DNA from: a virus
Taxonomy: Duplodnaviria > Heunggongvirae > Uroviricota > Caudoviricetes
Strand: one strand, 5' to 3'
DNA: 64,000 nucleotides
Virus record (IMG/VR): IMGVR_UViG_3300021387_000308
Location: 38,037 to 102,036 of that record
The notes under the pieces were generated by a model, which saw only the letters and a program-made list of their open reading frames with translations, did no database searches and was not told the origin of the DNA. Position 1 is the stretch's first letter, and every line of letters starts with the position of its first letter. Below are positions 3,666 to 59,171 of this stretch, piece by piece. The translations under genes were made by a program, and so were the position numbers.

Positions 3666-6600
3666 ATGGATATTAATGTTAACTTATCTCATCAAACAAT
3701 GAGGGTTGCAACAGATCTAAAGAAGTTAGTCGCTGGCTCATAGAAATTCATCCGTTTCGTTTTTAAACTACCGAGTGAATGGGATGATTTTGATGTTATA
3801 ACAGTTTAGTTTATATAGAATGGTTTGGCAAAATATGATTAGCTTGATGAAAACCATGCTGTATATCTCCCATCAGATCTTGAGCCTGGAGATTTTCTAT
3901 TGTTAATTTACGGCTCAAAAAATAACGGAGAAATTCGAGGGACTGTAAATGCATTACAACTCACTCTTACTCCTGATCAATATATTCCTAGTGCTACTGA
4001 AGTATCTCTTACCGAGAATATGTATGATCAGCTAATAAAAATGGTTACAACCATTGGAAGTGAGCCTGTTACAAGTAGTGATATACGTGGATGGGTTTAT
4101 GATGATTCGGTTGCTATTCTTAGGCAATTTCTCGACAATGGAGATTTAACTGGTTTAACTATTCCAGATAAAACAATTGAAAAACATCATCTCAACGATG
4201 AACTTCAAGCATCCATAGACCGAGCAGATTCTGCACTTCAATATATCCCGGATGGATCAGTAACAAGGTCAAAGGTTGATTCAGAAATTGAAGGACTTTT
4301 TAATACTCTTGAAAACCTCGAAATGACTATCCCAGAAGGTTCTATTGATAAAAGTAAAGTGAATTCTGATTTTGCTGCTACTTTAGATAGGGCAGATTCT
4401 GCCATGCAACCATCTGTCTATGATGTTAATAATCGTGCAACAGATATTTTTAATTATGCTGATAGTAAAGTAGAACCAGTTCAGGCTTTAGCATCAAGTA
4501 TGAGACAGGAAATGTCTAGTGCTTACACTGTTGATGAAACATCTTATGATAGTCTTGGTGCTGCTATTAATGGTGCGCTCACTCAGGCAAGAACTTATGC
4601 TAAATCATATACGGATGTAACTCTTGGTAATTATGTTCCATATAGTGTAGCTATTACTGCTACTCTTCCACCGATTAATCTTGGGCAAGATAGGACTTTC
4701 TATCTCGTACCAAAAGCTTCTGGTAATGGATATGATAAATGGTGGGTTGTTGAAAATCTCGACCATACTAAAGTGTGGGATAATTGGGGCGGTTCTTCTA
4801 CATTAATTGTCACTGAGTTGCCACAGGAAGGTGATGTTGATGTAGATTATATTTTAGCCCAAAATGGAGATTATAAATATTATAAATATATTGATAATGA
4901 ATGGAAAATGATTGCCGGGACTAATAATGTATTTTTAGGTATTGAAGGGCAACATTTTATTATTGGAATTGGTGAGCCTGATAATGATTTGATTACTCAT
5001 GATAATTATGCTGCCACTTTAGGATATATAGATATATCTTCGGAGAACTTGAATTGCTATTTTGCAAATGTAGTTTCTTATGAACCTGATTTTGAATATG
5101 AATGGGATGAACCACATGAATTAGTTGAATTCCCATCCGTTGATAAAGATTATTATGTTTTAGATAATAATATGAATTATGTCCATTTAAAATATAATGG
5201 AGGTCAATTTAATATTGTAGGTTCTTGTACATTTGTAGTAAACAAATTACCGACTGTTGGAATTAGCAATGTAGATTATTTATTATTTAAAGACGGAGAA
5301 TATCAGTATTATAAATATATTAATGATAGTTGGAAAATGATTTCTGGCGGGAGTGCAGATGTAATAGTAAATGAACATTCGATTGATTATTATACTCTTC
5401 CACCATTTACTGATCAAGATTTATCAAAATATATTAATAAGTATTATTTAGATGTAAGTAATTTAAAACTTTATACTGTTGTTCAAAGTAATGATGAATA
5501 TCAATGGCAAGAAACTGTTCTTGTTAGTAACCCAAGTGATAGCAAGGATTATTATATACAATTTGGGAATAATAATCTTCTTCATTTTAGATTTGTTGAT
5601 AATGTATTTATACCTGTTGGTTTTACTCAAACTGAAATTGATTCGATTATTAATCCGCTCAATACTAGGATAAATACATTAACAAATAGAATAGATGGAT
5701 ATGATACTTAGATTACTCAAAATCAAAGCAATATAGCTTCTTTAAATAATACAGTTTCATCTCTTCAGCAAGCTGTTAGTGAGATTGATACAGAGGGTTA
5801 TGAATATTTTGCAGACTATGGGACATATGAAGTTGCTGGGCAAGAAACAGATAATGTTTATAGGCTTCGTAAAGTAAAAGGCAGCGAAGAAGAAGTTGTA
5901 AGTTAGTTTGTGATTCAAGGCGGCGGAGGTGGACAGCAAACTTCTACTAACCTTGTTGTTGAAAGAATTACCTAGTCACCATTAATTGTAACTCCAAATG
6001 ATAATGTGATTCTTGAATTTAGGTATTCTTCTGTAACTAATGATAATCAAAAGGAAGAAATTGATGGTAACTATACATTAAAACTTGGCAATACTGTTAT
6101 TGCAAGTGGTGAATGTATTCAAGGAATAAATTCAATCGATGTAACATCATATTGTACTATAGGTACACAAAGGTTTAGTTTAAATGTTGTTGACCTTGGT
6201 GGTAGTAGTGCCGTTAGAACATTTACTGTGTAGAAGGTAGATGTTCGTATTGAATCTGAATACAATGATAGATATTATAATGAGATTGGGAAATCAGCCC
6301 AATTTACATATACTCCATATGGTGCAATAAATAAGACTATTCATTTTAGTTTGAATGGTGAAGAAGAGACTATTACTACTGCTGCTTCTGGTATATTGCA
6401 ATCATATGCTATTCCAGCCCAGCCACACGGTTCATATTTACTTGATGTATGGGTTACTGCGACTGTTAATGGAACTGATATTGAAACAAATCATATTTAT
6501 AAAGATATAATGTGGTATGATCCAAATATGGATGGACAAGGTAATTATAAATCTCCTGTTATCGGATGTAATTATAGATATGACCATCGTGGAGCGGTAA

Positions 6601-9600
6601 GCGTAAGACAATACGATACTCTTCCAATTGTTTATAATGTTTATGACCCAACAACGAATTATCCAATTGTGCGAAGATATATTGATAATGTACTTGTTGG
6701 TACAGATACCATGGAAACAACTCAGAATACATGGAACTTCAAATCTGACATTGTTGGTGAACATAATCTACGAATTGAATGTAGAGATACCGTTGTTATA
6801 ATTGTTGTAAATGTTACAGAACTTGGTATTGATGTTTCTCCAATTACTGGTGGTCTAGAACTTGATTTCAATCCTGTTGGTATCACTAATAGTTCAGAAA
6901 ATAGAATTTGGTCGAATGATAATTATCATATGACAGTTTCCCAGAATTTTGACTGGGCAAACGGTGGATATAAAACAGATGAAAATGGTAATTCTTATTT
7001 CTTAATAAAAGCTGGAACTACTGCGTCATTTGATTATACTATGTTCTCTGGAGGAGTTGATAATAATCCATCAAGAACTGGTTCTGAAATGAAAATTATA
7101 TTTATGACGGAAAATGTTCAAGATGCTGATGCTGTTTGGTTTAGTAATGTTGAAACAAGAAGCTAGACAGTCGATGAAACAACTGTTACTGTAAATATGG
7201 GTATTCAAATGTCTGCTCATAATGGATGGTTAAAAACAAATAAGGCTAGTGATGTTGATGTATCTGATGGAAGTTCTGATACTGTTGCTGCTACGAATAC
7301 GTATTTGTATATGCCATACAGTGAAGAAGATATTATTGAAATGGATATCAATATAGACACGATTGATCTTGAAAATGAAACTTCTACCGCTTTTGTAATG
7401 TCATATGAAGATGGTGTTCCGTCAAAAGCATATGTATATGATAGAAGTGATAGATTTTATCAGTATGACCCTCAGCCAATCACGATTGGTTCTACTTACT
7501 GTGATGTAAGAATTTATAGATTAAAAATCTATTCTACTTCTTTAACATCAGAGGGTATTATGAGAAACTTTATTGCTGATTCTATGGATTCTACTACTAT
7601 GCTTGCTAGATATGATAGAAACAGTATTTATTATAATCAAGAAACTGGGGAATACTCTCCATATAATACAAATGGTATTTTGAGTCCTGAAAGATTAGCT
7701 CCAATAGTTCCTAATGTAAAGATATTGATGTTGGAAACTGATCATTTTACTACCAGCAAAAAGACATTTGTTAAATCCAATTTAAGATGTATTCATGCTC
7801 CAGGCGGCGATGTTTATCCTGGCGATGAATATTATGATAACTGGTATTTTGAAAATGGATGGCATTCTGGTCAAGGTACTACATCTGACAACTATGGTAA
7901 CTCTGGTAGAAACGTTGACTTTTTGTTTAACTGTGATGGTGTCCATAAACCAAGTGATAAGATAAAAGATCCAGAACCAGATTATATTTCAAAAGTTACT
8001 CTTGGTTATAATACTGAAAATGCATACACTGAAACGGTTACGGACTGGAAGGGTGATTCTGGTAAAATTAGTCTTACAAGGACTTCGATACCAAATAATT
8101 TCTTTAATTTAAAAGTTAATATAGCTTCTAGTGAAAATGCAAACAATGCATTGATGCAAAAGAGGTATACGGATTTCTTACCTTATATTTCTCCAGCAAA
8201 ACGAAGAGATCCTAGGATAAAAAATGATATGGAATTTGTTCCAGCAATTTTATTTATTAAAGAAACAAATCCTGATCTTAGTACTCATAATGAATTCCAA
8301 GATAATGAATGGCATTTCTATGCCCTTGGTAATCTTGGAGATTCTAAGAAAACTGACTATACACGTTCATATGACCCAGAAGATATGAATGAATTTACTA
8401 TAGAAATATCTGATAATACTAAAAATAATGCAACATTCCAAACTGGTGTTTATCAGAAACAAGATGGCTCTTATGGATATGAAACATTCCATCTGATTAA
8501 AACACTTGATAAAGAGGGAGAACTTGTTGTTACTCCAGTATCTGAAGTTTCTATATCTGAGCATATATCTCCTGTTCCTTATGACCAAATTGATGCACTT
8601 TTGTTCTAGCAAGGTACTATTCATGTTATTAATGAAACTGGATTAGCAGAGCATGATGGTGATGAATATGGATATTTAAACATGAGAATCTGGTGTCTTT
8701 ATAATGAGGGATTTGATGGAGATCACTCCTTCGAACCTAGATATGCTTGTTGTGGTGATTATAGAGATGGTAAATTAGTAAATGATTATTCTGGATATGG
8801 TAAATAGCAGGTAAAAACGAATGAAAAGGTTTGGAGAGCATTCTACAAGTGGGTTATCACTTCTACTAATGAATAGTTTGTACAAGAACTTGATCAGTGG
8901 TGCGTAAGAAGTGCTGTAGAATTTTTCTATGCATTCACTTTATATTATACCATGATGGATAATAGAGCAAAGAATACTTTCTGGCATTTTGCAAAGACTG
9001 GTGTTTATAGAGAAGTATCCAGACCTGTTGAAGAATTACTCCATATTTATTGTGAATTAGTAGATGAAGAATATGTTCCAACTGAAGACACTTCAATTGA
9101 TCCAGAAAAAACATATTATACATAGTATGCATTTGATTTATGGTGCTATGATACTGATACTGGTCTTGGAATTAATAATAATGGTGAACTTATTTTCCCA
9201 TATGGTAAAGAAGATACTGATTATAATATTGATGGTGATCCATCTTCTGGTTGGGTATTTAACGGAGCTACTTCTGTATTCTGGTGCAGATTGAGAGATT
9301 TATTATCAAATGAAATAACAGAGACATTTAACAGTGTTTCAGCGGAGTGTTTTAATGCTACTAATCTGATAAATCAATTTGATAAATTCCAAGGATGCTA
9401 TCCAGAAGAAATATGGAGACTTGATGTAGAAAGAAAATATGTAAGGACATATACTGGAAAATCTGTTGATAATTCTATTCCTAAACATGATACTCAGTAT
9501 CTTAGAGATATGATGCAAGGTAGAAAGAAATATCAGAGAAGACAATGGGTTAGAGATTAGGAAATGTATTTTGGAACAAAATATCTTATGAATACTGTTG

Positions 9601-35250: not shown

Positions 35251-36933
35251 GTGAAAATTATGTCCGTAACAATAAATAATTTGGCTAAAAAAGCATGGAA
35301 GGTTTTTCTAAAAGAAGGGATGACAAAACAAGGAGCAGCTGGAATGCTGGGTAATATTTTTGCAGAAAGTGGAATGAATGCTTCTATTGTTGAATACCTA
35401 TGTCTTCAACGGCTTAGAGAAAATGGCAAAAATTATACTCAAGAATCATATAGATAGGCTGTTGACAATGGTAAAATTACGAGAGCAGAATTTTTAAATC
35501 CATTGCCAGGCAAATAGTATGGTTGGGGATGGACTTAGTTAACAACTCCTGTTCCACGAAAATCAGAGTTCTATGATAGAACAGTTGCCGTTGGTAAATC
35601 AATAGCTGATGAAGATGAGCAAATTAATTACACTATTTATGAACTTAAAACAAGATATAAAAGTGTGTGGAAAGTACTTACAACCACAACTTCTATTAAA
35701 ACTGCTTCTGATACTGTATTGAGAGATTTTGAATCACCAAGTAATTGGTAGCAATATAGTTCATTGAGAATGCAGTATTCTTAGGAGTATTATGATTATT
35801 TTAATAATCAAGCTACAGGCACGAAAGGAAGTGATGTTGTGTCAGTAACTAGAGAACAAGCAATTAATGCGATGATATCTACCGCAGAAGCTGAGATCGG
35901 ATATCTTGAGAAAGCTAGTAATTCTTAGCTTGATTCTAAGACGGCTAATGCTGGTAGTAATAACTATACTAAATATTGGAGAGATGTATATCCCGCATAT
36001 CAAGCCCAAGCGTGGTGCGCTTGTTTCGTATCTTGGGTGTTTATGAAAACATTTGGATAGGAAACTGCCAAAAAGCTTCTTAAACACTGGCCTTATGTTT
36101 ACTGCCCAACTATGGCATCATTGTTTACGCTTAATGCTAATCCGAAGAAAGGTGATATTGTAATCTTTTATCGCAATGGCACATTTGCTCATACTGGGAT
36201 TGTTGTTGGTGTAAATGGAGATTAGTTTACTACTATTGAGGGTAATACCTCGAATGGTTCTACTATTATTGCAAATGGTGGCGGAGTATGCAAAAAGAGT
36301 TATTACAACTCAAATCTGCCAGGTACTAAATTCTGTACTCCAGATTACTCAATAGTAACCAAGATTCTCTCTGGTAATACTACTATCAATACTACTACAA
36401 CCACTACTTCTACTACCACTACTACAACTACCTCTTCTACTTTGAATGAAACTCCAAAGTGGAAAGGTAAATTAAATCGTAATGCAAAAGTTCGTACTTG
36501 GGCTGGATCAGAAAATAAAGAAGTATCGTTTTCTCCACTCAAGAAAAATATCCAAGTAGAAGTGTGTGATACTGTTAAAGATACAAAGAATCGTAATTGG
36601 TATTATATCAAAGTAAATGATAAATTTGGTTTTATATATAGTAAATATATAGATAAAGTTGTTGCTAATACAACTAAACCAACTAAAACTACAACCGCCA
36701 AAACCACTACTACGCAATATCGTGTTCAAGCTGGAGCATACTCGGTACTTGCCAATGCAAATGCTACTGTAAAGACTCTGACCAAATCTGGGTATGATGC
36801 TGTGGTAGTCAAGAGCGGAAATAGTTATATTGCATAGCTTGGAATGTTTGGTTCACTAGCTAATGCAAATGCACTTAGAGATAAAGTTAAATCTGACGGT
36901 TTCGATGCCGTTGTTATTGCTATAAAATCATGA
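35251..36933 (+). CDS. multidomain peptidoglycan hydrolase (560 aa): N-terminal lysozyme-like domain (AAGMLGNIFAESG), CHAP/NlpC-P60 domain (AWCACFVSW ... HTGIVVGV), SH3b-like domain, C-terminal SPOR domain; about 9 TAG(Gln)
   Basis: GTG 35251 or ATG 35260. Frame 1 continuous through track ORFs 35251..35457 and 36442..36837 to TGA 36931-36933. Cys and His catalytic motifs of CHAP recognised; SPOR motif YRVQAGAYSVLANANATVKTL. Confidence 0.65.
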
Positions 36934-36950: not shown

Positions 36951-38102
36951 ATGAACGTTTATTTAGATAATGCTGCAACTACACAGATGTTGCCAGAAGT
37001 AATTGATGCTATGAAGTCATATATGATTGAATACTATGGAAATCCATCTGGATTATATACGATTGGATTTAAAACAAAAAATATGCTTGATGATTGTCGC
37101 AAAACTATTGCACAGACTATCAATGTATAGCCTAACCAGATTTATTTCACATCTGGTGGAACTGAGGGAGATAATTGGATTATTAAAGGTGTTGCTGAAG
37201 CGCTGGAAACAAGAGGTCATCATATTATTACTTCTTCTATTGAACACAAAGCAATTCTTAAATCTTGTGAATGGCTTGAAGATCATGGATTTGAAGTAAC
37301 ATATATTGACCCAGATGATCGCGGTTTTATCCATGTATCTGATATTGAAAGTGCCATCCGTGAAGATACTATTCTTGTTAGCATTATGTATGCTAATAAT
37401 GAAGTTGGTACTATACAGCCAATTGAAGAGATTGCTAAAGTATGTAAAAATTATCATGTGTTGTTCCATACAGATGCAGTTCAAGCATATGGTCATGTTC
37501 CAATCAACGCTCGGAAATTTGGTATTGATTTCATGACAACAAGTAGTCACAAATTCCATGGCCCAGACGGTGTAGGATTTGTCTATATTCGTAACCCAAA
37601 AACTATTTCTCAATTTATCCACGGTGGACAACAAGAATCTGGATTCCGCGCTGGAACAGAAAATATGTTGGGTATTGTTGGAATGGCAAAAGCTGCGGAG
37701 ATTGCACATAAAAATCTACAAACTAATATTAATTATATGACATCACTCAGAGATGTGTTTATTGATGAGTGTTTAAATAATATACCAAAGTGTCACCTGA
37801 ACGGTTCTCTCATAAGTAGACTGTGTAATAATATCAGTTTAACATTTGATGGTGTTCCCGGCGAATCTTTGGTAACAATGTTGGATATGATGGGAATAAG
37901 TTGTTCTACTGGAAGTGCTTGTAATTCTTCCGATGAAAAACCATCACATGTTTTAACTGCCATGGGTAGGACTGATGAGTATGCCCATAATACACTCAGA
38001 TTTACTCTTTCTGAGTTGACAACGGCAGATGAGATAGATTATGTTCTTCAATGTTTAAAACGCACTATTTCTGATATTAGGAGGTTATATGGGCAAAAGT
38101 AA
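36951..38102 (+). CDS. class V aminotransferase / cysteine desulfurase (NifS/IscS-like, 383 aa) with 1 TAG(Gln) at 37128
   Basis: RBS aaaaagga then ATG 36951. Frame 3 walk through TAG 37128-37130 to track ORF 37386..38102 checked. PLP-lysine motif SSHKFHGP, active-site Cys motif GSACNS, FTSGGTE motif. Confidence 0.75.
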
Positions 38103-38316
38103 TTGGAGTGGGTTTATAACTTATCATAGGATTAAACGTGCGCAGACCAATTTAGATAAGGTGAATCAATAGATGTTTGAAGACATTTCTTTATTACATC
38201 CACCAAAACTGGATGAAGACTATGTAAAATCATGTATAGATAATAATTAGCCAATTGACTAGGAGCAATAAATTACTCGGCAAGTTTTTGCTCCACTTTC
38301 GTTTTATATATATTTA

Positions 38317-38350
38317 GGGGATACCGTTATTTTTGGTATCCCCATTTTTT
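38317..38350 (+). terminator. rho-independent terminator (GGGGATACC-gttattttt-GGTATCCCC then atttttt)
   Basis: Perfect 9-bp GC-rich stem plus T tract, 215 nt after the cysteine desulfurase stop. Confidence 0.7.
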
Positions 38351-38474
38351 ACCATTTTACGTACTTGTATATAACTAGGAATTGTTTATTCATAATCATA
38401 TATAAATATATAAAGTGCAATGTATACGCTCTATCCTTTCTATAATTTATATTTTATCAAATGTAGTCACATAA

Positions 38475-38486
38475 TTGTCACACGAA
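38475..38486. repeat. direct repeat TTGTCACACGAA, copy 1 (candidate integrase arm-type site)
   Basis: Exact 12-mer repeated at 38581, in the non-coding region next to the integrase 3' end. Confidence 0.35.
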
Positions 38487-38580
38487 AATGCTAAAATGCA
38501 CATGAGAAAATGCGATATATTCAGCATTGTCGAGACCGGACACGCCTCGTCACCCCGCTTAAATACTGGGTTTGCGGGCT

Positions 38581-38592
38581 TTGTCACACGAA
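38581..38592. repeat. direct repeat TTGTCACACGAA, copy 2
   Basis: Exact match to 38475-38486. Confidence 0.35.
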
Positions 38593-38603
38593 TTTGGCAC
38601 ACA

Positions 38604-39914
38604 CTAAGCTAGGGATGATTTTACCATCTTTTTTTCGGCGCTTTCCATGTAAAATTTTTTCTTATCAAAATTTTGAATGTCGTATGTGTAATGAAGATCA
38701 TTGACCCTTGGAGTGTTACCAATTAGGCTTCCAGCTTCAGTAGCAGATACACCATCAAATCTTAGATAAGAATTAAATGTCCTTCTGATAGCATGAATAC
38801 TTTTGTGTGAATCGAATTTGATCTGCTCACATTTATGATTCATGTATGCAGTAAGGTTTTTACATCTCAGCTTTTGACCGTCAAAAGAAAAAACAAAGTC
38901 ACCCTCTTGACCATATTCGCGCTGTAAATCCCGCATCTTATTCAGAAAGGTATTGATCTCTTCCGTAATAGGAATCGTTCTTGTCTTACCAGTCTTTGTT
39001 TTGGATTGCTCGTAAGTTTTATTGACTACATCATATTTCTCAGATTCACATACTATTATATGGTCGTTGAGAACGTATTTCCAACGAAGTCCAGCAATCT
39101 CACCGCATCTCATTCCAGTGAGTAGTGCAAATTGAACTCCATAAGGATAAATGTAATCTTTCTTGCGCAAGATGTCGGAATTTATTTTGTTGATCAGGAT
39201 AGTCAATTCTTCTTGAGAAAGAGTACGTTCTTCAATAGTTTTTTCATCCGTGTTGTAGAACTTCACGAACTTCTTCTTATCAACAAACTGACACGGGTTA
39301 TCTTGCGGTGGAATAACCTTATCTATAACAGCATTGTAAAATACACCACTGATATAAGAATATAATCCATCTGCTCCTCTCCGCTTAAGATTGAACTTTT
39401 TTATGTTGTTTATCATAAATAGTTCAATATCTTTTGAAGTAATCGATGATAAGTCTGCTCTAGCGAACGGAGTACCGTCAAAAAACCGAAACCAGTCTGT
39501 CTCATAGCGTCTTATACTGTTGTTGGATTTGCCGTATTCTTTCTGCATCTCCATCCACTTGTCATGACCTTTGGAAAAAGTATATGTTTTATCCTCTGGT
39601 TCTTCTTCCCCAGTATAAAAGCGCACTATTAAATCTTCTAACTCTTTCAGAGTTTTCTTACTCTTTTGAACTATCTTGCCATCAACATTAAATCTTGTTA
39701 ACCACCTGTCTTTCTTCTCGTTGTACTTTGGTTCGTATGGATGTTGTAACAGTATACGTTTACGTTTCTCCATCTCGATCAACTCACGTATACATTGCAA
39801 GTCCATATTACCACTTTCTTCAATACTTTTCAATGCTGCATCTAATTCGTTAATATTATTAGGGGTAACCTCTTCGGCTACCCCATTTTTTACCATTTTT
39901 CTACTCATAGGCAT
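38604..39914 (-). CDS. tyrosine recombinase / phage integrase (436 aa), TAG stop
   Basis: Track ORF. Catalytic motifs LLTGMRCGEI (Arg), HAIRRTF (His-x-x-Arg), C-terminal Tyr in LHYTYD. The stop is TAG at 38604-38606. Confidence 0.8.
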   Translation of the reverse strand: MPMSRKMVKNGVAEEVTPNNINELDAALKSIEESGNMDLQCIRELIEMEKRKRILLQHPYEPKYNEKKDRWLTRFNVDGKIVQKSKKTLKELEDLIVRFYTGEEEPEDKTYTFSKGHDKWMEMQKEYGKSNNSIRRYETDWFRFFDGTPFARADLSSITSKDIELFMINNIKKFNLKRRGADGLYSYISGVFYNAVIDKVIPPQDNPCQFVDKKKFVKFYNTDEKTIEERTLSQEELTILINKINSDILRKKDYIYPYGVQFALLTGMRCGEIAGLRWKYVLNDHIIVCESEKYDVVNKTYEQSKTKTGKTRTIPITEEINTFLNKMRDLQREYGQEGDFVFSFDGQKLRCKNLTAYMNHKCEQIKFDSHKSIHAIRRTFNSYLRFDGVSATEAGSLIGNTPRVNDLHYTYDIQNFDKKKFYMESAEKKMVKSSLA

Positions 39915-40186
39915 TACCCAATCATAAATGCAATGAGTTTGTTTACATCGTCCTGATTGTAGGCAATAATCTCAAGTTCTGGGATTTCTCCACCACCAGA
40001 AAAAATATTTGCCAGACTAAAATACTGTGTAAGTTTTGATTTTAAGTTCAGACGAAGATCTTCGCCAACAAGTTCAATCTTACCAGTACAGCTATCAATA
40101 ACTTCAAAAAATTTTTCAATATCATTAATATGATTAATCTTCATTATTCGTTTCTCCTTCTTTATTTTCATCCATAATATTTCCAA
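39914..40186 (-). CDS. hypothetical early protein (90 aa)
   Basis: Track ORF abutting the integrase. Confidence 0.4.
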   Translation of the reverse strand: MEILWMKIKKEKRIMKINHINDIEKFFEVIDSCTGKIELVGEDLRLNLKSKLTQYFSLANIFSGGGEIPELEIIAYNQDDVNKLIAFMIG

Positions 40187-41147
40187 TATCTGTAATCACT
40201 GTCCCAGATCCTGATACAACTGGAAGTTTGCCATCCCACTTAGCAATCTTTTCGTTTTCAATAAGTTCTGGTGTAAGAGATTCTGCAATTAATTTATTTG
40301 CCTCAGCCTGTGCTTGTGCTTTCACACGAATAGCTTCTGCTTCACCCTCAGCTTTAATACGAATCTGTTCAGCTTTGGATTCCGCACTAATCTTTTTAGC
40401 ATCAGCTTCCGCTTGTGCTTTAATGCGAGACTGTTCTGCTTCTGCCTCAACTTGAATCGTTGTCTGCTTATTTGTATATTCAGCAGTTTCAGCAGCAAGT
40501 TTAGCCTGAGCTTTCTTCTCAATGGCACTGTTATAAGCGTCTGAGAAATTAATATTTCCGATTGTCACAGATACAATATTAACAATCTGATTTTTATATT
40601 TTGTATTTAGTGAATTCTGAATACATTCTTTAGCAACTTTTTCAATCTTGGATCGATCAGTTACATCTGTATCATTAAACTGTTTAGTTGCTGCTTTAAT
40701 TCCAGACTCGATAGATGTTGCTTTAATAAGATTAGTATCCCATTCCTCAACATTTGTCCAAATCCATGCTGCATACTCCGCATTGATCTGATAGTCAATT
40801 GCAATATTTTCACAGTACAATTCTGTACGTTCGTTTGTTTCAGACCAAATCTGACCAGAATAGATAATCTCCTGCTGTTTGCAGTTAATGTTATTAATTT
40901 TTTCAACAAACGGAATCTTCCAGTTAAGTCCACTCTGAGTCGGCTTGTCAGAAATCTGTCCATACATTGTTCTCACACCTACATACCCAGACGGTACAAA
41001 GCTAAAAGAGCATCCAAATAGAATTGCTATAAGCCCAACAATTGAAATAAAAATTGGCGCAACTTTTTTTATACTAATCATTAATGCCACGCCACCAACA
41101 GTAAAAATAAAACCACCAATAAGCAAAATCGCTTTAATACTATTCAT
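40134..41147 (-). CDS. SPFH/band-7 (prohibitin/HflK-like) membrane protein (337 aa)
   Basis: N-terminal TM segments, GYVGVRTMYGQI and FSDAYNSAIEKKAQAKLAAETAEY motifs, long Ala/Glu/Lys-rich coiled coil. Confidence 0.65.
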   Translation of the reverse strand: MNSIKAILLIGGFIFTVGGVALMISIKKVAPIFISIVGLIAILFGCSFSFVPSGYVGVRTMYGQISDKPTQSGLNWKIPFVEKINNINCKQQEIIYSGQIWSETNERTELYCENIAIDYQINAEYAAWIWTNVEEWDTNLIKATSIESGIKAATKQFNDTDVTDRSKIEKVAKECIQNSLNTKYKNQIVNIVSVTIGNINFSDAYNSAIEKKAQAKLAAETAEYTNKQTTIQVEAEAEQSRIKAQAEADAKKISAESKAEQIRIKAEGEAEAIRVKAQAQAEANKLIAESLTPELIENEKIAKWDGKLPVVSGSGTVITDIGNIMDENKEGETNNED

Positions 41148-41307
41148 CTAAAATCTCCTCGTTATAAATTGATGTAATTCCAATCATCATTCCACAATCG
41201 AAACATTCATAATAATCGTGGTGAGTTGGGTTCTCATCATCAGGAAACGGTTCACTGATAAGTTCCATAATCCCACCACAATATGGACATAATATTTTCT
41301 TACCCAT
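41140..41307 (-). CDS. small zinc-ribbon protein (55 aa, CPYCGG ... CFDCG), TAG stop
   Basis: ATG overlaps the dUTPase stop (TAATG). Four-Cys motif. Too short for the track. Confidence 0.4.
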   Translation of the reverse strand: MGKKILCPYCGGIMELISEPFPDDENPTHHDYYECFDCGMMIGITSIYNEEILDE

Positions 41308-41747
41308 TAGGTAACCCCTGTAGAGCCAAATCCACCACGGTTGGGGTTATCAAGATTATCTACTTCATTGAAGTGGATTATTGGCTGTTTCTTAACAATT
41401 CTAAACTGGCAGATTCTGTCACCTCTATAGATGGTAGTCTTCCTCATAGCTAATGCTGGGAACCTCCACCAATCATCATTGCCACAATAACTGTGATCTA
41501 TTACACCAAAATGGTTGGTTTGGATAATACCGAATTTTTTAAAAGTACTACTTCTAGGTACGATGTGCGCTTCGTATCCTTCAGGTAATTCCATAGCAAC
41601 ACCGAGATTAATAATTCTGAAGTCACCTGGCAGCATCGTTACAGTTTCAGCTGACCTCAAATCAATCCAATCGCTCTTTTCCCCATCGATATACTCAAGT
41701 TTCGGCATATCCTTGTCAATATACTTAATCTTAATTGTCTCACTCAT
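41307..41747 (-). CDS. dut: dUTP diphosphatase (trimeric dUTPase)
   Basis: Motifs [18 protein letters not shown]. Confidence 0.85.
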
Positions 41748-42646: not shown

Positions 42647-45600
42647 TTAACTGCAATGACTAAATCCACAATCTTTGCATGTACTACAGCCACCCTCGAA
42701 TATAAGTTCTCCACCGCATTCTGGACAAATCGCTTTTGTTTTTTGTTTAGGAACTTTTACAACATCATTATTTACAGTTGCTTCTACAACTTTAGTAGGA
42801 GTGATCACATACTCATCGTCTTCATCAAAGATATCATCTTGGATTTCACGATACATATCAATTAATGCATTTGCAATCGCTACTGGGCAACTATTACCTT
42901 TTGATGTATCATGCTTGGTCGCTGTTCTTACAGTATAAGACGGACAAGCTGGAACGCTCATAAGCTGGTCAGCAATAGAATTAATATCAACTCCACCTCT
43001 TGCAGATAATGAAATCAATCTTGAGATTGCTGTAAGGTTACAAAGGCATCCTCCGCTACTACCCTTATTTAAGAAGCATTCTAATAAATCACCAGTATCT
43101 GGATCAAAAAATGCAGAACAATGTAGAGAACCGCAGCCAGTCACTAAATGTCTTTCTTTACCAACGGAATTATTATCAACCTTAATAATCATTCCTCTTT
43201 CTAATTTCTGAGGAATATGTTTTACCTCTTCTTCTGAGTGATCGATTGTTAAAATTCCTGCACGTTTACATCCATCACGGAAGATTGTTACACCTTTAAG
43301 GCCAGCTTCCCACGCTTTCATATAAAGGTCTTCTACTTCTTCAATAGTAAAGCTATTTGGTACATTAACCGTTGAAGAAATACTAGCATCAATATGTTTC
43401 TGCCAGATTGCTTGCATTTTAATGCGTTCTTTATAATCAAGTGTTTGTGCTGTCACAAAGAAATCGGGTAATTCAGAATCGTCATCAATATTGTTTTCAT
43501 CCATATATTTTTTTACAATCGGAGTATAAACTTTATAATACTCATCATGTCCATGAAGCGACTCTGTTTTTCTTGTATAGTAATTTGCAAAAATTGGTTC
43601 GATACCACCAGACACTCCAAGCATCGTAGAAAGTGTTCCAGTTGGGGCAATAGTAAGTAGCTGCGAGTTAGCAAGTCCACAAGAAACATCTGTATCACCA
43701 ACATGCTCACTAAAGAATGCAGATTGAGCAACTGCCTCTGGATGATACTTAGGATAATGACCAATTACTTTTGCAAGTTCAGCAGATGTCTTAATAGCTT
43801 GATATGCCATCTTCTGACCAATCATGTCGCACAGATGGATAGATTCATCACTACCATAACGAACACCCATTTTAATCAACATATCTGCCAAGCCAAAGAT
43901 TCCTAATCCACACTGTCTCCAATCTCTAACAGATTCTCTCTGTTCTTTGAGAGGATGAAGTGGAATACCCTCATCAAGAACTTCATTCAATGCTTTAATG
44001 GCAATATCTACTGTATTTGAAAAATCTTCAAAATCAAAAAGCTTATCTTTAGTTACAAATTCTGAAAGATTGATGGAGCCGAGCAAACACGACCCACCGG
44101 GCGGAAGCGGTTCTTCTGCACAATTATGAACAACAAAACCATTTACAACTCCCCAATGTCTTTCAGGTTCTGTAAAATCATATACTTTTATCTTACCATT
44201 TGGTACTACACTAGTAACTTGCATAGCACGTTTTTTAATCATATTACACAGCTGCTCTCTCTTATACTGCTGATAAAAGCCAATGCAAGCCATAAATTTA
44301 ATAATTTCTTGATATCTTCCAATATTGATATCATAACTTTCGCGGATTTCATAAGTCCCATTTTCAAATTCAATCTTGTGTGGTTTATTTGTTGTAATAT
44401 ATGCATTGCAGATATCAAAATCTTCTTTTAATGTAGAAACTAATTTTTCCGCAAAAGCCTTACATGTGGTTTTATATGAAATTCTTCCACCTTTGTGTGT
44501 ATCATTCTTTTTTATAACACATCCATTTGCGGAATAACAGCCACATAAAAAACTTGATTTTTCTAATCTAGTCCATGTATCGTATGTAGAAGGAAATTCT
44601 CTGTCTGGCAAAATATTAGGAGAAAACCCTAACTTAACTAATTCTGGTTGATAATTTGCTAAATAAATTGCACGTTCTGATTTTTTCGTAAATTCTTCAT
44701 CGGAAAACAAATCCCAGATATCGGTATCTTTCTCTCCAATATTAACTTCGATTCCATCATGATATTTACTATTTAATCTAGTAGTTTGCCCATCACCCTG
44801 AATAAATCCAAGCTTAATAAAATGATTATCAAGATTATGGTTTGAACGAGTTAATGGCATTATATATTTACCAGTTAAATTCTCAGCACGACATTCTTCT
44901 CCATCTAAAGTCATAAATCTATGATCTGGAGTACAAATTACTTCTGTGTTATAGAATTTTACTTTAACAGTATCTTTTTCTCCGTTGCACCATACTTTAC
45001 TTTTTACAACGTTCCCATCAACATTAATAATATAAGGTTCAGTACCGTCAAGCTCTTCAAACGTTTTATATCCATCAACTGTAAGAAGTTTCGAATCTCC
45101 AGAAAAACATGGGTTTACTCCACCATATTTAAATTCAGGATCGCAACTAAGAAGATTCCAATTTTCTATTCTATCCCAGAAAAGCATTCCAGGTTCGGCC
45201 CAATCCCAATTAGACTCACAGATTTTATGAAATAATTCATAAGCATCAACTGTTTTAGTAATCGTTTCTCCAGTTTCTACTCTTGTAAAACTAAGTTCAA
45301 ATGGTTCACGATTTTTTACAGCTGCCATAAATCTATCAGTAATACGAATACTAATATTAGCTTTTGTAACCCTATCAGTATTTTGCTTAATTCCAATAAA
45401 TTCTTCAATGTCTGGATGGTCAACGGGGATTGATATCATCAAAGCTCCTCGTCTTCCCGCTTGCCCAATCAAACCAGTAACCATAGAATACAAATCCATA
45501 AAACTTACTGATCCAGATGTTTCTTTAGCGGCATTATGGACTATAGCGCCTCTGGGTGCAAGTTTACCAATATCAATGCCACATCCACCACCATAAGAAT

Positions 45601-45898
45601 AAGTACGTGCCAATTTCTTAGCACAATCAAAGATTTCTTCGATGGAATCACCAGGAGCAGATATCACATAACAATTTGATAAACTAATTTTTCTACCATC
45701 GTTATTAGTTCCACGATTGGCGAGGATTCTTCCACCAAATAAAAACTTTTTATCAATAATCTGCTTTTTTAATATTTCATTTTTATTGGTAATTCTATCA
45801 AGCCATTCATCAAATGTTTCGCCATTATATTGATACTTTCTTTCCCATATGTCAGTTGCTAATTTATTATCTTTACCAAGCCAATCTTCTACTCTCAT
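42647..45898 (-). CDS. nrdJ: ribonucleotide reductase, class II-like (adenosylcobalamin type), intein-containing precursor (1083 aa; about 754 aa after splicing), C-terminal zinc ribbon
   Basis: Extein junction reconstructs the active-site motif GGVNP-C-AEEPLPPGGSC. C-terminal CPECGG ... CSTCKDCG. Standard code, TAA stop. Confidence 0.7.
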   Translation of the reverse strand: MRVEDWLGKDNKLATDIWERKYQYNGETFDEWLDRITNKNEILKKQIIDKKFLFGGRILANRGTNNDGRKISLSNCYVISAPGDSIEEIFDCAKKLARTYSYGGGCGIDIGKLAPRGAIVHNAAKETSGSVSFMDLYSMVTGLIGQAGRRGALMISIPVDHPDIEEFIGIKQNTDRVTKANISIRITDRFMAAVKNREPFELSFTRVETGETITKTVDAYELFHKICESNWDWAEPGMLFWDRIENWNLLSCDPEFKYGGVNPCFSGDSKLLTVDGYKTFEELDGTEPYIINVDGNVVKSKVWCNGEKDTVKVKFYNTEVICTPDHRFMTLDGEECRAENLTGKYIMPLTRSNHNLDNHFIKLGFIQGDGQTTRLNSKYHDGIEVNIGEKDTDIWDLFSDEEFTKKSERAIYLANYQPELVKLGFSPNILPDREFPSTYDTWTRLEKSSFLCGCYSANGCVIKKNDTHKGGRISYKTTCKAFAEKLVSTLKEDFDICNAYITTNKPHKIEFENGTYEIRESYDINIGRYQEIIKFMACIGFYQQYKREQLCNMIKKRAMQVTSVVPNGKIKVYDFTEPERHWGVVNGFVVHNCAEEPLPPGGSCLLGSINLSEFVTKDKLFDFEDFSNTVDIAIKALNEVLDEGIPLHPLKEQRESVRDWRQCGLGIFGLADMLIKMGVRYGSDESIHLCDMIGQKMAYQAIKTSAELAKVIGHYPKYHPEAVAQSAFFSEHVGDTDVSCGLANSQLLTIAPTGTLSTMLGVSGGIEPIFANYYTRKTESLHGHDEYYKVYTPIVKKYMDENNIDDDSELPDFFVTAQTLDYKERIKMQAIWQKHIDASISSTVNVPNSFTIEEVEDLYMKAWEAGLKGVTIFRDGCKRAGILTIDHSEEEVKHIPQKLERGMIIKVDNNSVGKERHLVTGCGSLHCSAFFDPDTGDLLECFLNKGSSGGCLCNLTAISRLISLSARGGVDINSIADQLMSVPACPSYTVRTATKHDTSKGNSCPVAIANALIDMYREIQDDIFDEDDEYVITPTKVVEATVNNDVVKVPKQKTKAICPECGGELIFEGGCSTCKDCGFSHCS
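44123..45109 (-). mobile_element. intein (329 aa) with LAGLIDADG homing endonuclease, inserted at the RNR active-site cysteine
   Basis: Starts CFSGDSKLLTVDGY (block A), has TPDHRF (block B), LGFIQGDG and FLCGCYSANG (LAGLIDADG motifs), ends ...GFVVHN followed by +1 Cys. Confidence 0.8.
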
Positions 45899-48898: not shown

Positions 48899-49157
48899 CT
48901 GGTTCCATTACAACTGTTGTAAGCTGACTTAATGCTTCACATGCATGATATATTCCATAGTATTTACAATCCTTACAATGGACATGTTGTGGAATTTTAA
49001 TTTCAGAAAATAATTCTACAATATCTATAAACCAGTCAATACAACTGGATACACCGCGAGTAAATGTATCAAATGGTTCTTCCTGATGATCTTGTAGATA
49101 TTCTAATAAATCGTCTTTATCTATTGCTCTCAATTCTATAACCTCGGATCTTTCCAA
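48861..49157 (-). CDS. Cys-rich small protein (98 aa), CKDCKYY family
   Basis: HCKDCKYYGIYHACE, paralogous to 55755..56048. Confidence 0.4.
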   Translation of the reverse strand: MERSEVIELRAIDKDDLLEYLQDHQEEPFDTFTRGVSSCIDWFIDIVELFSEIKIPQHVHCKDCKYYGIYHACEALSQLTTVVMEPDDYCSRGERKDE

Positions 49158-49393
49158 TCAGGATTTTCTCGTTTTTGTCGCTCAATTATTTCGTGCCAAC
49201 CATCAATATATTCATCTTTTTCTTTTAAATCTGCAATCTTATCTTTGAGTACATTGATTAACAAATCTTTTTCCTCAACAGTTTCGAATGTGATTGTATC
49301 AATACTATGCTCTACTTTATCGAGTATATCAGAATACTTTTTCAAATATTTTTTAAAAACACTCACAATTATTCTCCTATTATTCGTTGCCAA
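49136..49393 (-). CDS. hypothetical early protein (85 aa)
   Basis: Track ORF. Confidence 0.35.
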   Translation of the reverse strand: MATNNRRIIVSVFKKYLKKYSDILDKVEHSIDTITFETVEEKDLLINVLKDKIADLKEKDEYIDGWHEIIERQKRENPDWKDPRL

Positions 49394-51194: not shown

Positions 51195-51576
51195 CCATAC
51201 AAATTTTATATTTATTTAATCTGTGCCGTTTTACACTCCGCTTCAGACACTGATTAGTACACGGAGAAACCAGGCATATTTGCACCTTATGTTATTATCC
51301 ACGTTCGGTTGTGGTAAGTCTTTCCTTACATTTGTCGATGAGCGGAAAGGAAACCTTTTAATGAAATTGCTCACGTCTGCGGGTGGGGACTTGCACCCCA
51401 CATGATTGGAGTTTTGGGATATTATTGCTCTCGATTACCCCCTGCGTTACACCCGAAGGTTCAAGATTAATCTTGCGCTGACTCGGTGATTATTTTACAT
51501 GGCACAACATCTATCCATAACCAATCTATAAGAAGCCACACTTTAGCGTATATCTGTTCCGCCACCGCAGATAAAA
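51195..51576. other. 382-nt GC-enriched, ORF-free, hairpin-rich intergenic region inside the early operon (candidate origin / small RNA / regulatory hub)
   Basis: No ORF of 60 aa or more on either strand. Visibly higher GC than the flanks. Hairpins GTAAG-tctttc-CTTAC, CTTTCC...GGAAAG, GTGGGG-acttgca-CCCCAC. Confidence 0.4.
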
Positions 51577-51834
51577 CTATTTTGATTTTACAATTTCTAC
51601 TGAAGTCACTTCTGTATAATCTTGTGATAATTCTATAACAGCATCATGATCAAAAATATATCCATAACATTCATCCGTTTTTGTATTAACGTCTGTTATT
51701 ACTCCGATACATTTTCCATCTATACATATAGGACGATCTCTTGCTGCTTTTAAAATGTCAAATCTTCTATTTAGATTTGGTTCTGTTTCTTCATATCTAT
51801 TTTTGATTTTAACTTTAAACTTGACATCAATCAT
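51577..51834 (-). CDS. hypothetical early protein (85 aa), TAG stop
   Basis: Track ORF; the stop codon is TAG. Confidence 0.4.
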   Translation of the reverse strand: MIDVKFKVKIKNRYEETEPNLNRRFDILKAARDRPICIDGKCIGVITDVNTKTDECYGYIFDHDAVIELSQDYTEVTSVEIVKSK

Positions 51835-52458: not shown

Positions 52459-52761
52459 CTATTCCATTATTTTAAATCCATCTATTGTCTTATATACTGC
52501 ATCACAAATCTCATCTGATAATTTTTCCAACATCAATTCTTCATTAATCTCATGTTTCAGATATTCTTGGGATACATCAATTGTAACGGCTATTGAATTA
52601 TTATCTGGGTTAAGTTGACGGTCTTCATCTTCCACTTCAAATTTGAAATTATACCACTCGCCATTAGCATCATACGCTCCAAACAATAAATCTGTTTCCT
52701 TATCATATCCTAGCTGTTTAAATTTATTAATAAATTCTGTAATTTTCATATAAAACCTCAA
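52459..52761 (-). CDS. hypothetical early protein (100 aa)
   Basis: Track ORF. Confidence 0.35.
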   Translation of the reverse strand: MRFYMKITEFINKFKQLGYDKETDLLFGAYDANGEWYNFKFEVEDEDRQLNPDNNSIAVTIDVSQEYLKHEINEELMLEKLSDEICDAVYKTIDGFKIME

Positions 52762-55331: not shown

Positions 55332-55547
55332 TCAGAAATGGCTACTCTCATTCATTAGTCTTGTAACTCTATCACTTAAAATCTCATATAGCTGTTCATC
55401 ATCACCCTGTATAAATAAACGCTGACAATCATCATCATAATCTTCTACTTTTGTTACAATACCAAAAACTATAAGACCATATATCCCGTAAAAACACACT
55501 CGATCATAAATTTTAAATTTATTATAATCTACTCTAGACATATCCAA
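55332..55547 (-). CDS. hypothetical early protein (71 aa)
   Basis: Track ORF. Confidence 0.3.
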   Translation of the reverse strand: MDMSRVDYNKFKIYDRVCFYGIYGLIVFGIVTKVEDYDDDCQRLFIQGDDEQLYEILSDRVTRLMNESSHF

Positions 55548-55768
55548 TCACCATCATCAACAAAATCTCTCGGATGTTCATACATTCTCTTCTCGTAAAA
55601 TTTTCCATTATCTGTGTTATAACACACCAGATTACCATATTCTAAAGCTGCCAATATATCCTCAACATCCATCCTACAGATATTACCATACGAATAACCA
55701 TTAACTTTTGGTGGCACATGATTACAATTTACGCATATGCCGTTGCCAGTAGCATTACAAATTTTCAT
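55529..55768 (-). CDS. zinc-finger small protein (79 aa)
   Basis: CNATGNGICVNCNH. Confidence 0.35.
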   Translation of the reverse strand: MKICNATGNGICVNCNHVPPKVNGYSYGNICRMDVEDILAALEYGNLVCYNTDNGKFYEKRMYEHPRDFVDDGDWICLE

Positions 55769-57964: not shown

Positions 57965-58210
57965 CTATTGGTTTCTAAATTTTTCAATCCAGGCTGTTGC
58001 TTCAATAATATTTTTTGCAGATTTTCTTAAACGATCAATATCGTTAAATGCTATATCGATACTTGTGCAATGAGAAAACAACCCTTTCATGTCTATCAAA
58101 TCTCCAACTTCAAACTTCTTTTGATGCGAATATAGTCCTTCCATTGCCGCTACATCATCTTTGGAGGCTTCAAGAATAAAGCCATCATTTGTTTTACCAA
58201 TTATTTTCAT
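57965..58210 (-). CDS. hypothetical early protein (81 aa)
   Basis: Track ORF. Confidence 0.35.
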   Translation of the reverse strand: MKIIGKTNDGFILEASKDDVAAMEGLYSHQKKFEVGDLIDMKGLFSHCTSIDIAFNDIDRLRKSAKNIIEATAWIEKFRNQ

Positions 58211-58484: not shown

Positions 58485-58898
58485 TTCTTACCCCTAATCA
58501 AACAATCTTTTTTATTCTACATAAAATTTGCATCTATATTCTGCATGACAATCATCGCCAGGTGCATATAATTTCAACTCAAGTTCTTTACTAAAGATTT
58601 TTTTTGCCATCGATGTTGATGATAAATCCATCAACAATCATGTCATTACTTTCCACATTACAGAAAGTTTCTCCAATATCTTTAATTGTTGTCACTTCTA
58701 CTATTCTCCATCAAAAACTCTTTCTATCAACTGTCCAGCTACTCCGCATTTAAATATCTCTCAATCAACTTTTTGGTTTTATCACGAATTTCAATTGGTA
58801 TTGAATCATCGCCCATATACAAATCCATTACTTTACCAAATAACTCACCATTGGTATGTGATTCATCTATATATTGTTTGATTTGTGATCTAACATGA

Positions 58899-59171
58899 TC
58901 AAATGTCATTTTGTTCTCCTTTTATTTTATCGATATACTTCAGAATATCATCACAAACTCGTTCACCAATAATGGATTCTCCTATAGAACATAAGCTTCC
59001 ATCTGAGTAATAAACTTTACTGTCTTCAATATATTTAATCAACCTATGCAGCAAGTTACTATCATTCATTATAGCCTTGATCATACTGGCAGTTTCTGCA
59101 TCACAATAAATATCATGTCCATCTTGTTTGATTGCGATATCTAATTCTTCAATAAATTCATTAAGCGTCAT
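58899..59171 (-). CDS. hypothetical early protein (90 aa)
   Basis: Track ORF. Confidence 0.35.
   Translation of the reverse strand: MTLNEFIEELDIAIKQDGHDIYCDAETASMIKAIMNDSNLLHRLIKYIEDSKVYYSDGSLCSIGESIIGERVCDDILKYIDKIKGEQNDI

Follow-up and report, generated by a model that had tools for sequence, protein, structure and literature searches.

Introduction

In the gut phages described by Borges et al., TAG is recoded in structural and lysis genes, while replication genes are kept in the standard code, as used by the hosts; integrases avoid in-frame TAG and sometimes legitimately stop at TAG, and a suppressor tRNA was detected in only about 40% of the TAG-recoded genomes (bioRxiv 10.1101/2021.08.26.457843). 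These phages include the Agate clade, which is large (154 +/- 27 kb), has Firmicutes hosts and was found in cattle, and the temperate examples Garnet and Topaz, of 22-34 kb (bioRxiv 10.1101/2021.08.26.457843). Genomes divided into blocks with different codes have been termed 'multiple genetic codes' in the work on Mgcod (bioRxiv 10.1101/2022.06.29.495998). Reading of late-gene TAG as glutamine (Gln) has metaproteomic validation in crAss-like phages (PMC9523058), and TAG also stands for Gln in the TAG-interrupted structural genes of phAss-1 (proposed Phassvirus), a gut phage of about 136 kb with 36 tRNAs, of which three are tRNA-Sup(CTA) (PMC10607447). Here we analyse how TAG is used in a 64,000-nt stretch of a tailed phage, positions 38,037 to 102,036 of the IMG/VR record IMGVR_UViG_3300021387_000308 (hereafter the window), which is identical to part of the 118,309-bp scaffold_261 of ENA ERZ28612940.

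Our conclusion, to which we give a probability of about 0.85, is that the window stems from a tailed phage of large size that is probably temperate, infects a low-GC Firmicute and has its genome written in two codes in two convergent blocks, with TAG in the late block most likely meaning Gln.

Results

TAG is used within genes on one strand and avoided on the other

The window (34% GC, with a GC skew that is positive to ~38 kb and negative thereafter) holds two convergent gene blocks, on the plus strand at 1-38102 and on the minus strand at 38604-64000. With the standard code (code 11), the plus strand breaks up into 73 short open reading frames (ORFs) with a coding fraction of 0.72. When only TAA and TGA are taken as stops (code 15), it carries 28 tightly packed genes of median length 246 aa, every one of which ends at TAA or TGA, and the coding fraction rises to 0.97. 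There is no such gain on the minus strand, whose coding fraction is 0.897 with code 11 (67 ORFs, ending at TAA in 36 cases, TGA in 23 and TAG in eight) and 0.893 with code 15. The plus-strand genes contain 107 in-frame TAGs in 12,276 codons (8.7 per 1000), spread over 25 of the 28 genes, compared to none in the 7,816 codons of the minus-strand genes, where 68 would be expected at the same rate (Poisson P about 3e-30). Out of frame, TAG trinucleotides do occur frequently in these latter genes (147 in one and 150 in the other of the two remaining frames), and hence the codon is avoided in frame rather than missing from the strand. The first-pass annotation of the window, a reading of its letters and ORFs, had described the minus-strand genes as devoid of internal TAG, and the codon as a stop on that strand and a sense codon on the other; both statements are borne out. 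Pfam assignments agree with a division into a late (plus-strand) and an early/middle (minus-strand, 'early' for short) block, and gene function makes these labels reasonable.

The 73 short ORFs obtained on the plus strand with code 11 are also what would be seen in a decaying, pseudogenised prophage arm, with TAGs as nonsense mutations. We give this next to no chance, for TAG is the sole interrupting codon: the longest late ORF, of 2,895 codons, has 21 in-frame TAGs and zero TAA or TGA. Moreover, Pfam domain matches run across the TAGs of late genes, TAG positions are largely kept between relatives (31 TAG-TAG pairs), and the identical sequence (100%) recurs in several independent assemblies.

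Within the late genes (3666-38102), TAG density is 13.7 per 1000 in the first 100 codons and 6.9 per 1000 downstream (Fisher P = 0.0015), and TAG makes up 36% and 24%, respectively, of Gln-like codons (P = 0.035); a Kolmogorov-Smirnov test on relative TAG positions gave P = 0.056. TAGs biased towards the 5' end would suit a gate early in each late ORF, but the effect is weak.

TAG terminates genes in the early block

Of the eight early ORFs that stop at TAG, three had been named in the first-pass annotation, and all three stops are present: those of the tyrosine integrase (38604-39914, minus strand, 436 aa, without internal TAG; stop at 38604-38606), a Zn-ribbon ORF (41140-41307, minus strand, 55 aa; stop at 41140-41142) and the ORF at 51577-51834 (minus strand; stop at 51577-51579). 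ORF calling added five further ones, also on the minus strand, at 49136-49393, 52459-52761, 55529-55768, 57965-58210 and 58739-58909. The small TAG-terminated ORFs had no match in PHROGs.

These stops could be reconciled with code 15 throughout the genome if early genes merely avoided TAG and translation of the eight ORFs went on to the following TAA or TGA. The public annotation of the source contig does use code 15, which makes the integrase 451 aa long (436 + Q + 14) rather than 436 and the Zn-ribbon ORF 57 aa rather than 55, and a TAA or TGA does lie 1-28 codons past the TAG in all eight ORFs (a single codon on, as TAA, in the Zn-ribbon ORF). Such backup stops are, by our estimate, no nearer than chance. 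Orthologues point the other way. The integrase of the IMG/VR relative L008 (63% identity) has TAA at the position aligned to the window TAG, and the orthologues, on the closely related 203-kb contig L010, of 55529-55768 (91% identity) and 57965-58210 (97.5% identity) have TAA exactly at the TAG position, with diverging sequence beyond; CAA or CAG occurs at this position in none of the three. Exchange of TAG for TAA is stop for stop and marks a genuine terminator, since a sense codon would swap with CAA or CAG.

Integrase C-termini tell the same story. The 79 homologues retrieved in an exhaustive HMMER search (E<1e-30, with the match reaching the C-terminus) stop short of the TAG-defined end by a median of 3 residues, and in 82% of them the distance to it is no more than 8 residues. 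With read-through, the window integrase would be 15 residues longer, up to the TAA at 38559, and only 9% of the homologues, which run 12 or more residues further, are long enough for such a product. Conserved extensions past the early TAGs, which the first-pass annotation had singled out as the sign of genome-wide recoding, were thus looked for and are absent, both in the three orthologues with TAA and in the integrase set. The 28-codon extension behind 51577 contains two more in-frame TAGs and so fits poorly to coding sequence in a block that otherwise holds none, and several of the extensions would run into the start of the next gene. Judged from these comparisons, TAG in the early genes is a genuine stop and a single code 15 for the whole genome is improbable; the public annotation over-extends the TAG-terminated early genes because it applies code 15 throughout.

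Late-gene TAGs align best with glutamine

The window TAGs were aligned with a recoded relative and with the non-recoded Blautia phage Montmirail, Monoglobales phage, MT835469.1 and Faecalibacterium phage Lagaffe. The 21 residues found opposite them were Q (8), Y (3), K, E, N and L (2 each), R and V (1 each). Gln, which is present at six of the ten TAG sites, is enriched about ten-fold over background among these residues (P = 8e-7 for at least 8 Q of 21); Ser occurs at none. Summed BLOSUM62 scores were highest for Q (21.8), followed by E (11.3), with Y at -1.8 and S at -5, and one TAG coincides with the Q of the conserved GLAQW motif in the lysozyme domain. Albeit a small sample, these aligned residues indicate that TAG in the late genes is most likely read as Gln.

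Relatives carry a tRNA with anticodon CUA

The first-pass annotation had also invoked a late-expressed suppressor tRNA encoded outside the window, and indeed neither ARAGORN nor Rfam found one inside it; candidates come from relatives. In L037/L038, which share 68% identity with the window phage in the deoxyribosyltransferase and 79% in the ribonucleotide reductase (RNR), a 91-nt tRNA with anticodon CUA (L037 11582-11672; Rfam tRNA, 58.9 bits) lies between the genes for these two enzymes, on the early strand and inside the standard-code block. Elsewhere (L168 and L175), a member of this tRNA family is found directly downstream of TAG-rich, recoded tail-fibre ORFs. In L176, another contig of this kind, a sigma-70-like promoter, spotted by reading the sequence, lies upstream of the small ORF that precedes the tRNA; the accession series of L176 (AUXO01) is that of L031, a contig carrying a window protein. 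None of these locations supports late expression of the tRNA.

Members of this tRNA(CUA) family (L037, L038, L074, L166, L168, L169 and L176), which ARAGORN names tRNA-Pyl because of the anticodon only, share the acceptor stem AGGGG(C/T)G..C(G/A)CCCTT and G73 with the ordinary tRNA-Gln(UUG) of the related phage L043, the Gln-type acceptor features in common being A1-U72, G2.U71, G3-C70 and G73. What sets them apart from the L043 tRNA is their class-II-like variable region, 17-22 nt in length. Long variable arms are characteristic of Ser, Leu and bacterial Tyr tRNAs, and this feature of the L037, L074, L166, L168 and L169 tRNAs (together with G73), as well as the Tyr aligned at 3 of 21 residues, could mean that late TAG specifies Ser, Leu or Tyr rather than Gln. 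We consider that quite unlikely given the residue counts, the BLOSUM sums and the GLAQW motif described above, and given the match of acceptor stem and discriminator to tRNA-Gln(UUG), the tRNAs in this last comparison being those of relatives and not of this genome.

Two further observations were made in the tRNA searches. L043, a distant relative, has a 116-nt tRNA-like gene with a large internal insertion (5952-6067; Rfam tRNA, 44 bits) that adjoins tRNA-Ile(TAT), tRNA-Pro and tRNA-Gln(TTG); it was missed by ARAGORN with default settings and called tRNA-His with a 35-nt intron in a relaxed run. Other relaxed ARAGORN calls were implausible, with giant introns, and were rejected.

The block junction and a putative attP

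Both blocks terminate in the 500-nt gap at 38103-38603. The code boundary coincides with the junction between the late and early blocks, as the first-pass annotation had stated, but not with a promoter switch: since the blocks lie tail to tail, the boundary is a shared 3' end. On the plus strand, an intrinsic-terminator-like hairpin at 38317-38352, consisting of GGGGATACC-N9-GGTATCCCC (38317-38343) with a T run behind it, marks the end of the late operon, and a second hairpin lies at 38262-38294.

The non-coding stretch 3' of the integrase gene (38380-38603) contains the direct repeat TTGTCACACGAA at 38475-38486 and 38581-38592. It has the motifs CAAACCCAGTATTTA, GGGGTGA, GTGTCCG and GTGTGCATTTTA in common with L008 9728-9960, although the two integrases are only 63% identical, and it is probably attP with arm-type sites. 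Scans of GTDB genomes, by integrase alignment and by an exact pattern with the conserved 3' motif, found no attB or prophage.

Gene content of the two blocks

The recoded late block (plus strand, 1-38102) comprises the end of the tail module, tail fibres (Peptidase_S74, Laminin_G_3), small membrane proteins, an endolysin and a cysteine desulfurase. Directly upstream of the window lies the tape-measure gene, publicly called at 7,650 aa (PhageMin_Tail; L001 1-4634 is its end), in whose final 1,544 codons there are 26 in-frame TAGs; with the rule of ~1.5 angstrom of tail length per tape-measure residue, such a protein would correspond to a tail >1 micrometre long. The endolysin gene (35251-36933, plus strand), with Phage_lysozyme2, CHAP and SPOR domains, has 9 in-frame TAGs, several of them aligned with Gln in homologues; a PDB search with the endolysin gave no match. 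Next to it, the last large gene of the block (36951-38102, plus strand) encodes a class-V aminotransferase/cysteine desulfurase and has one TAG, at 37128-37130 (codon 60). This enzyme is full-length (Aminotran_5, E = 1e-83), an unusual cargo 3' of an endolysin at the end of a late operon.

On the minus strand, the standard-code block (38604-64000) continues beyond the integrase with an SPFH/Band-7 protein gene (40134-41147, stop TAA), whose ATG is overlapped by the Zn-ribbon ORF, and with a dUTPase gene (41307-41747), both in the standard code. The gene at 42647-45898 (minus strand) encodes RNR with an intein (LAGLIDADG) and has zero TAG in 1,083 codons. Its orthologue in L008 is split into two ORFs (4411-5247 and 5488-6975) ~240 nt apart, between which there may be an intron. 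The rest of the block consists of about 60 small orphan ORFs. Behind the TAG of 51577-51834 comes the largest non-coding gap of the block, 51195-51576 (~380 nt), which has a comparatively high GC content and contains distant segments that are complementary to each other, CUGCGGUGG ... CCACCCGCAG; this gap had zero Rfam matches and its folding was no better than that of shuffled sequence (z = -0.14).

Further upstream on the same strand, in the source contig and relatives, are genes for nucleoside deoxyribosyltransferase, ThyA, ligase, Pol III alpha, DnaG, DnaB and SSB. Just outside the window (L007 5435-5767, about window 65119-65451) lies a gene for a Tad4-family protein, an anti-Thoeris family by its Pfam name, and a YAcAr-domain protein is also encoded among the small early-block ORFs near it (L007).

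Relatives, host and genome size

The layout of L008 is alike, with a TAG-free integrase strand facing a convergent TAG-containing strand. The standard code is used in the early blocks of six relatives, and also in the relatives' replication blocks. Among deposited phage genomes, nothing beyond remote matches was obtained with megablast, with distant blastn or with tblastn queries of Pol III alpha and the C-terminus of the tape measure, and a DnaB query in IMG/VR gave no further locus. MT835469.1 (176 kb) has the endolysin CHAP domain in common with the window phage, yet is not recoded.

The genome of this phage is at least 118 kb, and its IMG/VR relatives are of 161 and 205 kb. By coordinate arithmetic and if collinear, the assemblies of 118,309 and 108,091 bp would share the same end ~38 kb to the left of the window start, which would suggest a physical genome end or a repeat. 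On the same terms, the 203,101-bp contig ERZ12302819 NODE_51 would reach ~145 kb past the right end of the window, suggesting either a genome >200 kb or attached host DNA.

Discussion

Our analysis suggests the following mechanism. The early/middle block (anti-defence, nucleotide metabolism and integrase, with replication further upstream in relatives) is written in the standard code, presumably that of the host, and would hence be translatable immediately upon entry of the DNA; TAG serves there as a regular stop that is seldom used. The block of late genes (for tail, tail fibres and lysis) is in code 15, TAG most likely standing for Gln, and translation of its mRNAs would yield nothing but truncated proteins as long as no amber-suppressor tRNA(CUA) has accumulated. 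A tRNA-Gln is the probable origin of this suppressor, whose gene would lie in another part of the phage genome. Recoding would thereby lock structural and lysis genes at the level of translation, while the integrase could still be made in a cell that has not switched. Once the switch has taken place, the eight early proteins with a TAG stop would be longer by 1, 1, 3, 9, 10, 14, 24 or 28 residues. The temporal order, a suppressor of this genome's own and the fate of host release factor 1 (RF1) are parts of the scheme that we infer.

Several points weigh against this scheme. No tRNA was found in the window by ARAGORN or by Rfam at the gathering score or at E<=1, nor any tRNA or Rfam match in positions 6367-87211 of the source contig (about 80 kb of its 118,309 bp; L001, L007, L009 and L015), so that the suppressor is unproven for this genome; among the called genes of these ~80 kb, no release factor or aminoacyl-tRNA synthetase was flagged. 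Expression timing is read from gene function only. About 60% of the residues aligned to TAG sites are not Gln, and the class-II-like variable region (17-22 nt) of the relatives' tRNA(CUA) leaves some room for another amino acid. The host is deduced only from the endolysin CHAP domain, which shares 72% identity with its counterpart in Blautia phage Montmirail, and from the label of one metagenome-assembled genome.

Twenty-one TAGs in one ORF and 26 in the end of the tape-measure gene argue for near-complete read-through at each codon, and hence for an RF1 that is outcompeted or disabled. The whole tape-measure gene, at that density, would hold >100 TAGs, and a full-length product would need >99% read-through per codon. 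Classical suppressor tRNAs that compete with RF1 fall short of this efficiency. In addition, the lineage may inactivate the RF1 of its host or have a suppressor of unusual efficiency, for which the long-variable-arm tRNA(CUA) of relatives is a candidate; we regard this addition to the scheme as doubtful, and no RF1-neutralising or switch factor is encoded in the ~80 kb seen. Since its giant ORFs tolerate no appreciable RF1 activity, the lineage is a natural test of how complete amber suppression can become. For annotation, a single code errs both ways here: code 11 shatters late genes and code 15 over-extends the TAG-terminated early ones.

The plan of a recoded late block and a standard-code early block is that of the Agate, Topaz and Garnet phages, but no suppressor tRNA, release factor 2 or aminoacyl-tRNA synthetase is seen in the ~80 kb of source contig, and at 118 kb or more the window phage is much larger than the temperate Garnet and Topaz (22-34 kb). 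With Agate it agrees in size, in Firmicutes-type genes and in a probable ruminant source, the latter a guess from the sample name and the shared accession series; TerL, for its part, lies outside the window. The block division, with the late block in code 15, is also that of crAss-like phages and the Mgcod model. CrAss-like phages, however, are podovirus-like and have Bacteroidota hosts, whereas the window phage has a long-tail-type tape measure, an integrase and enzymes like those of Firmicutes phages, and sequence relationship between the two is undetectable. In contrast to phAss-1 with its many tRNAs, the window and the 80 kb of contig carry zero tRNAs, and there is no nucleotide or protein match to phAss-1 in the phage collection. 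Large genomes with many small early ORFs are shared with large Firmicutes phages such as the ~132-kb C. difficile phages, SPbeta-like phages and Clostridium phage c-st, none of which is known to be recoded; similarity to these is weak and limited to housekeeping enzymes (RNR, dUTPase and Pol III alpha, 31-34% at the amino acid level, with 66% at the nucleotide level over RNR). Altogether, block-wise recoding, including standard-code integrases that end at the recoded codon, is already published, and the window adds an example from a phage that is very large, carries an integrase and a tape measure of 7,650 aa, and probably stems from the rumen.

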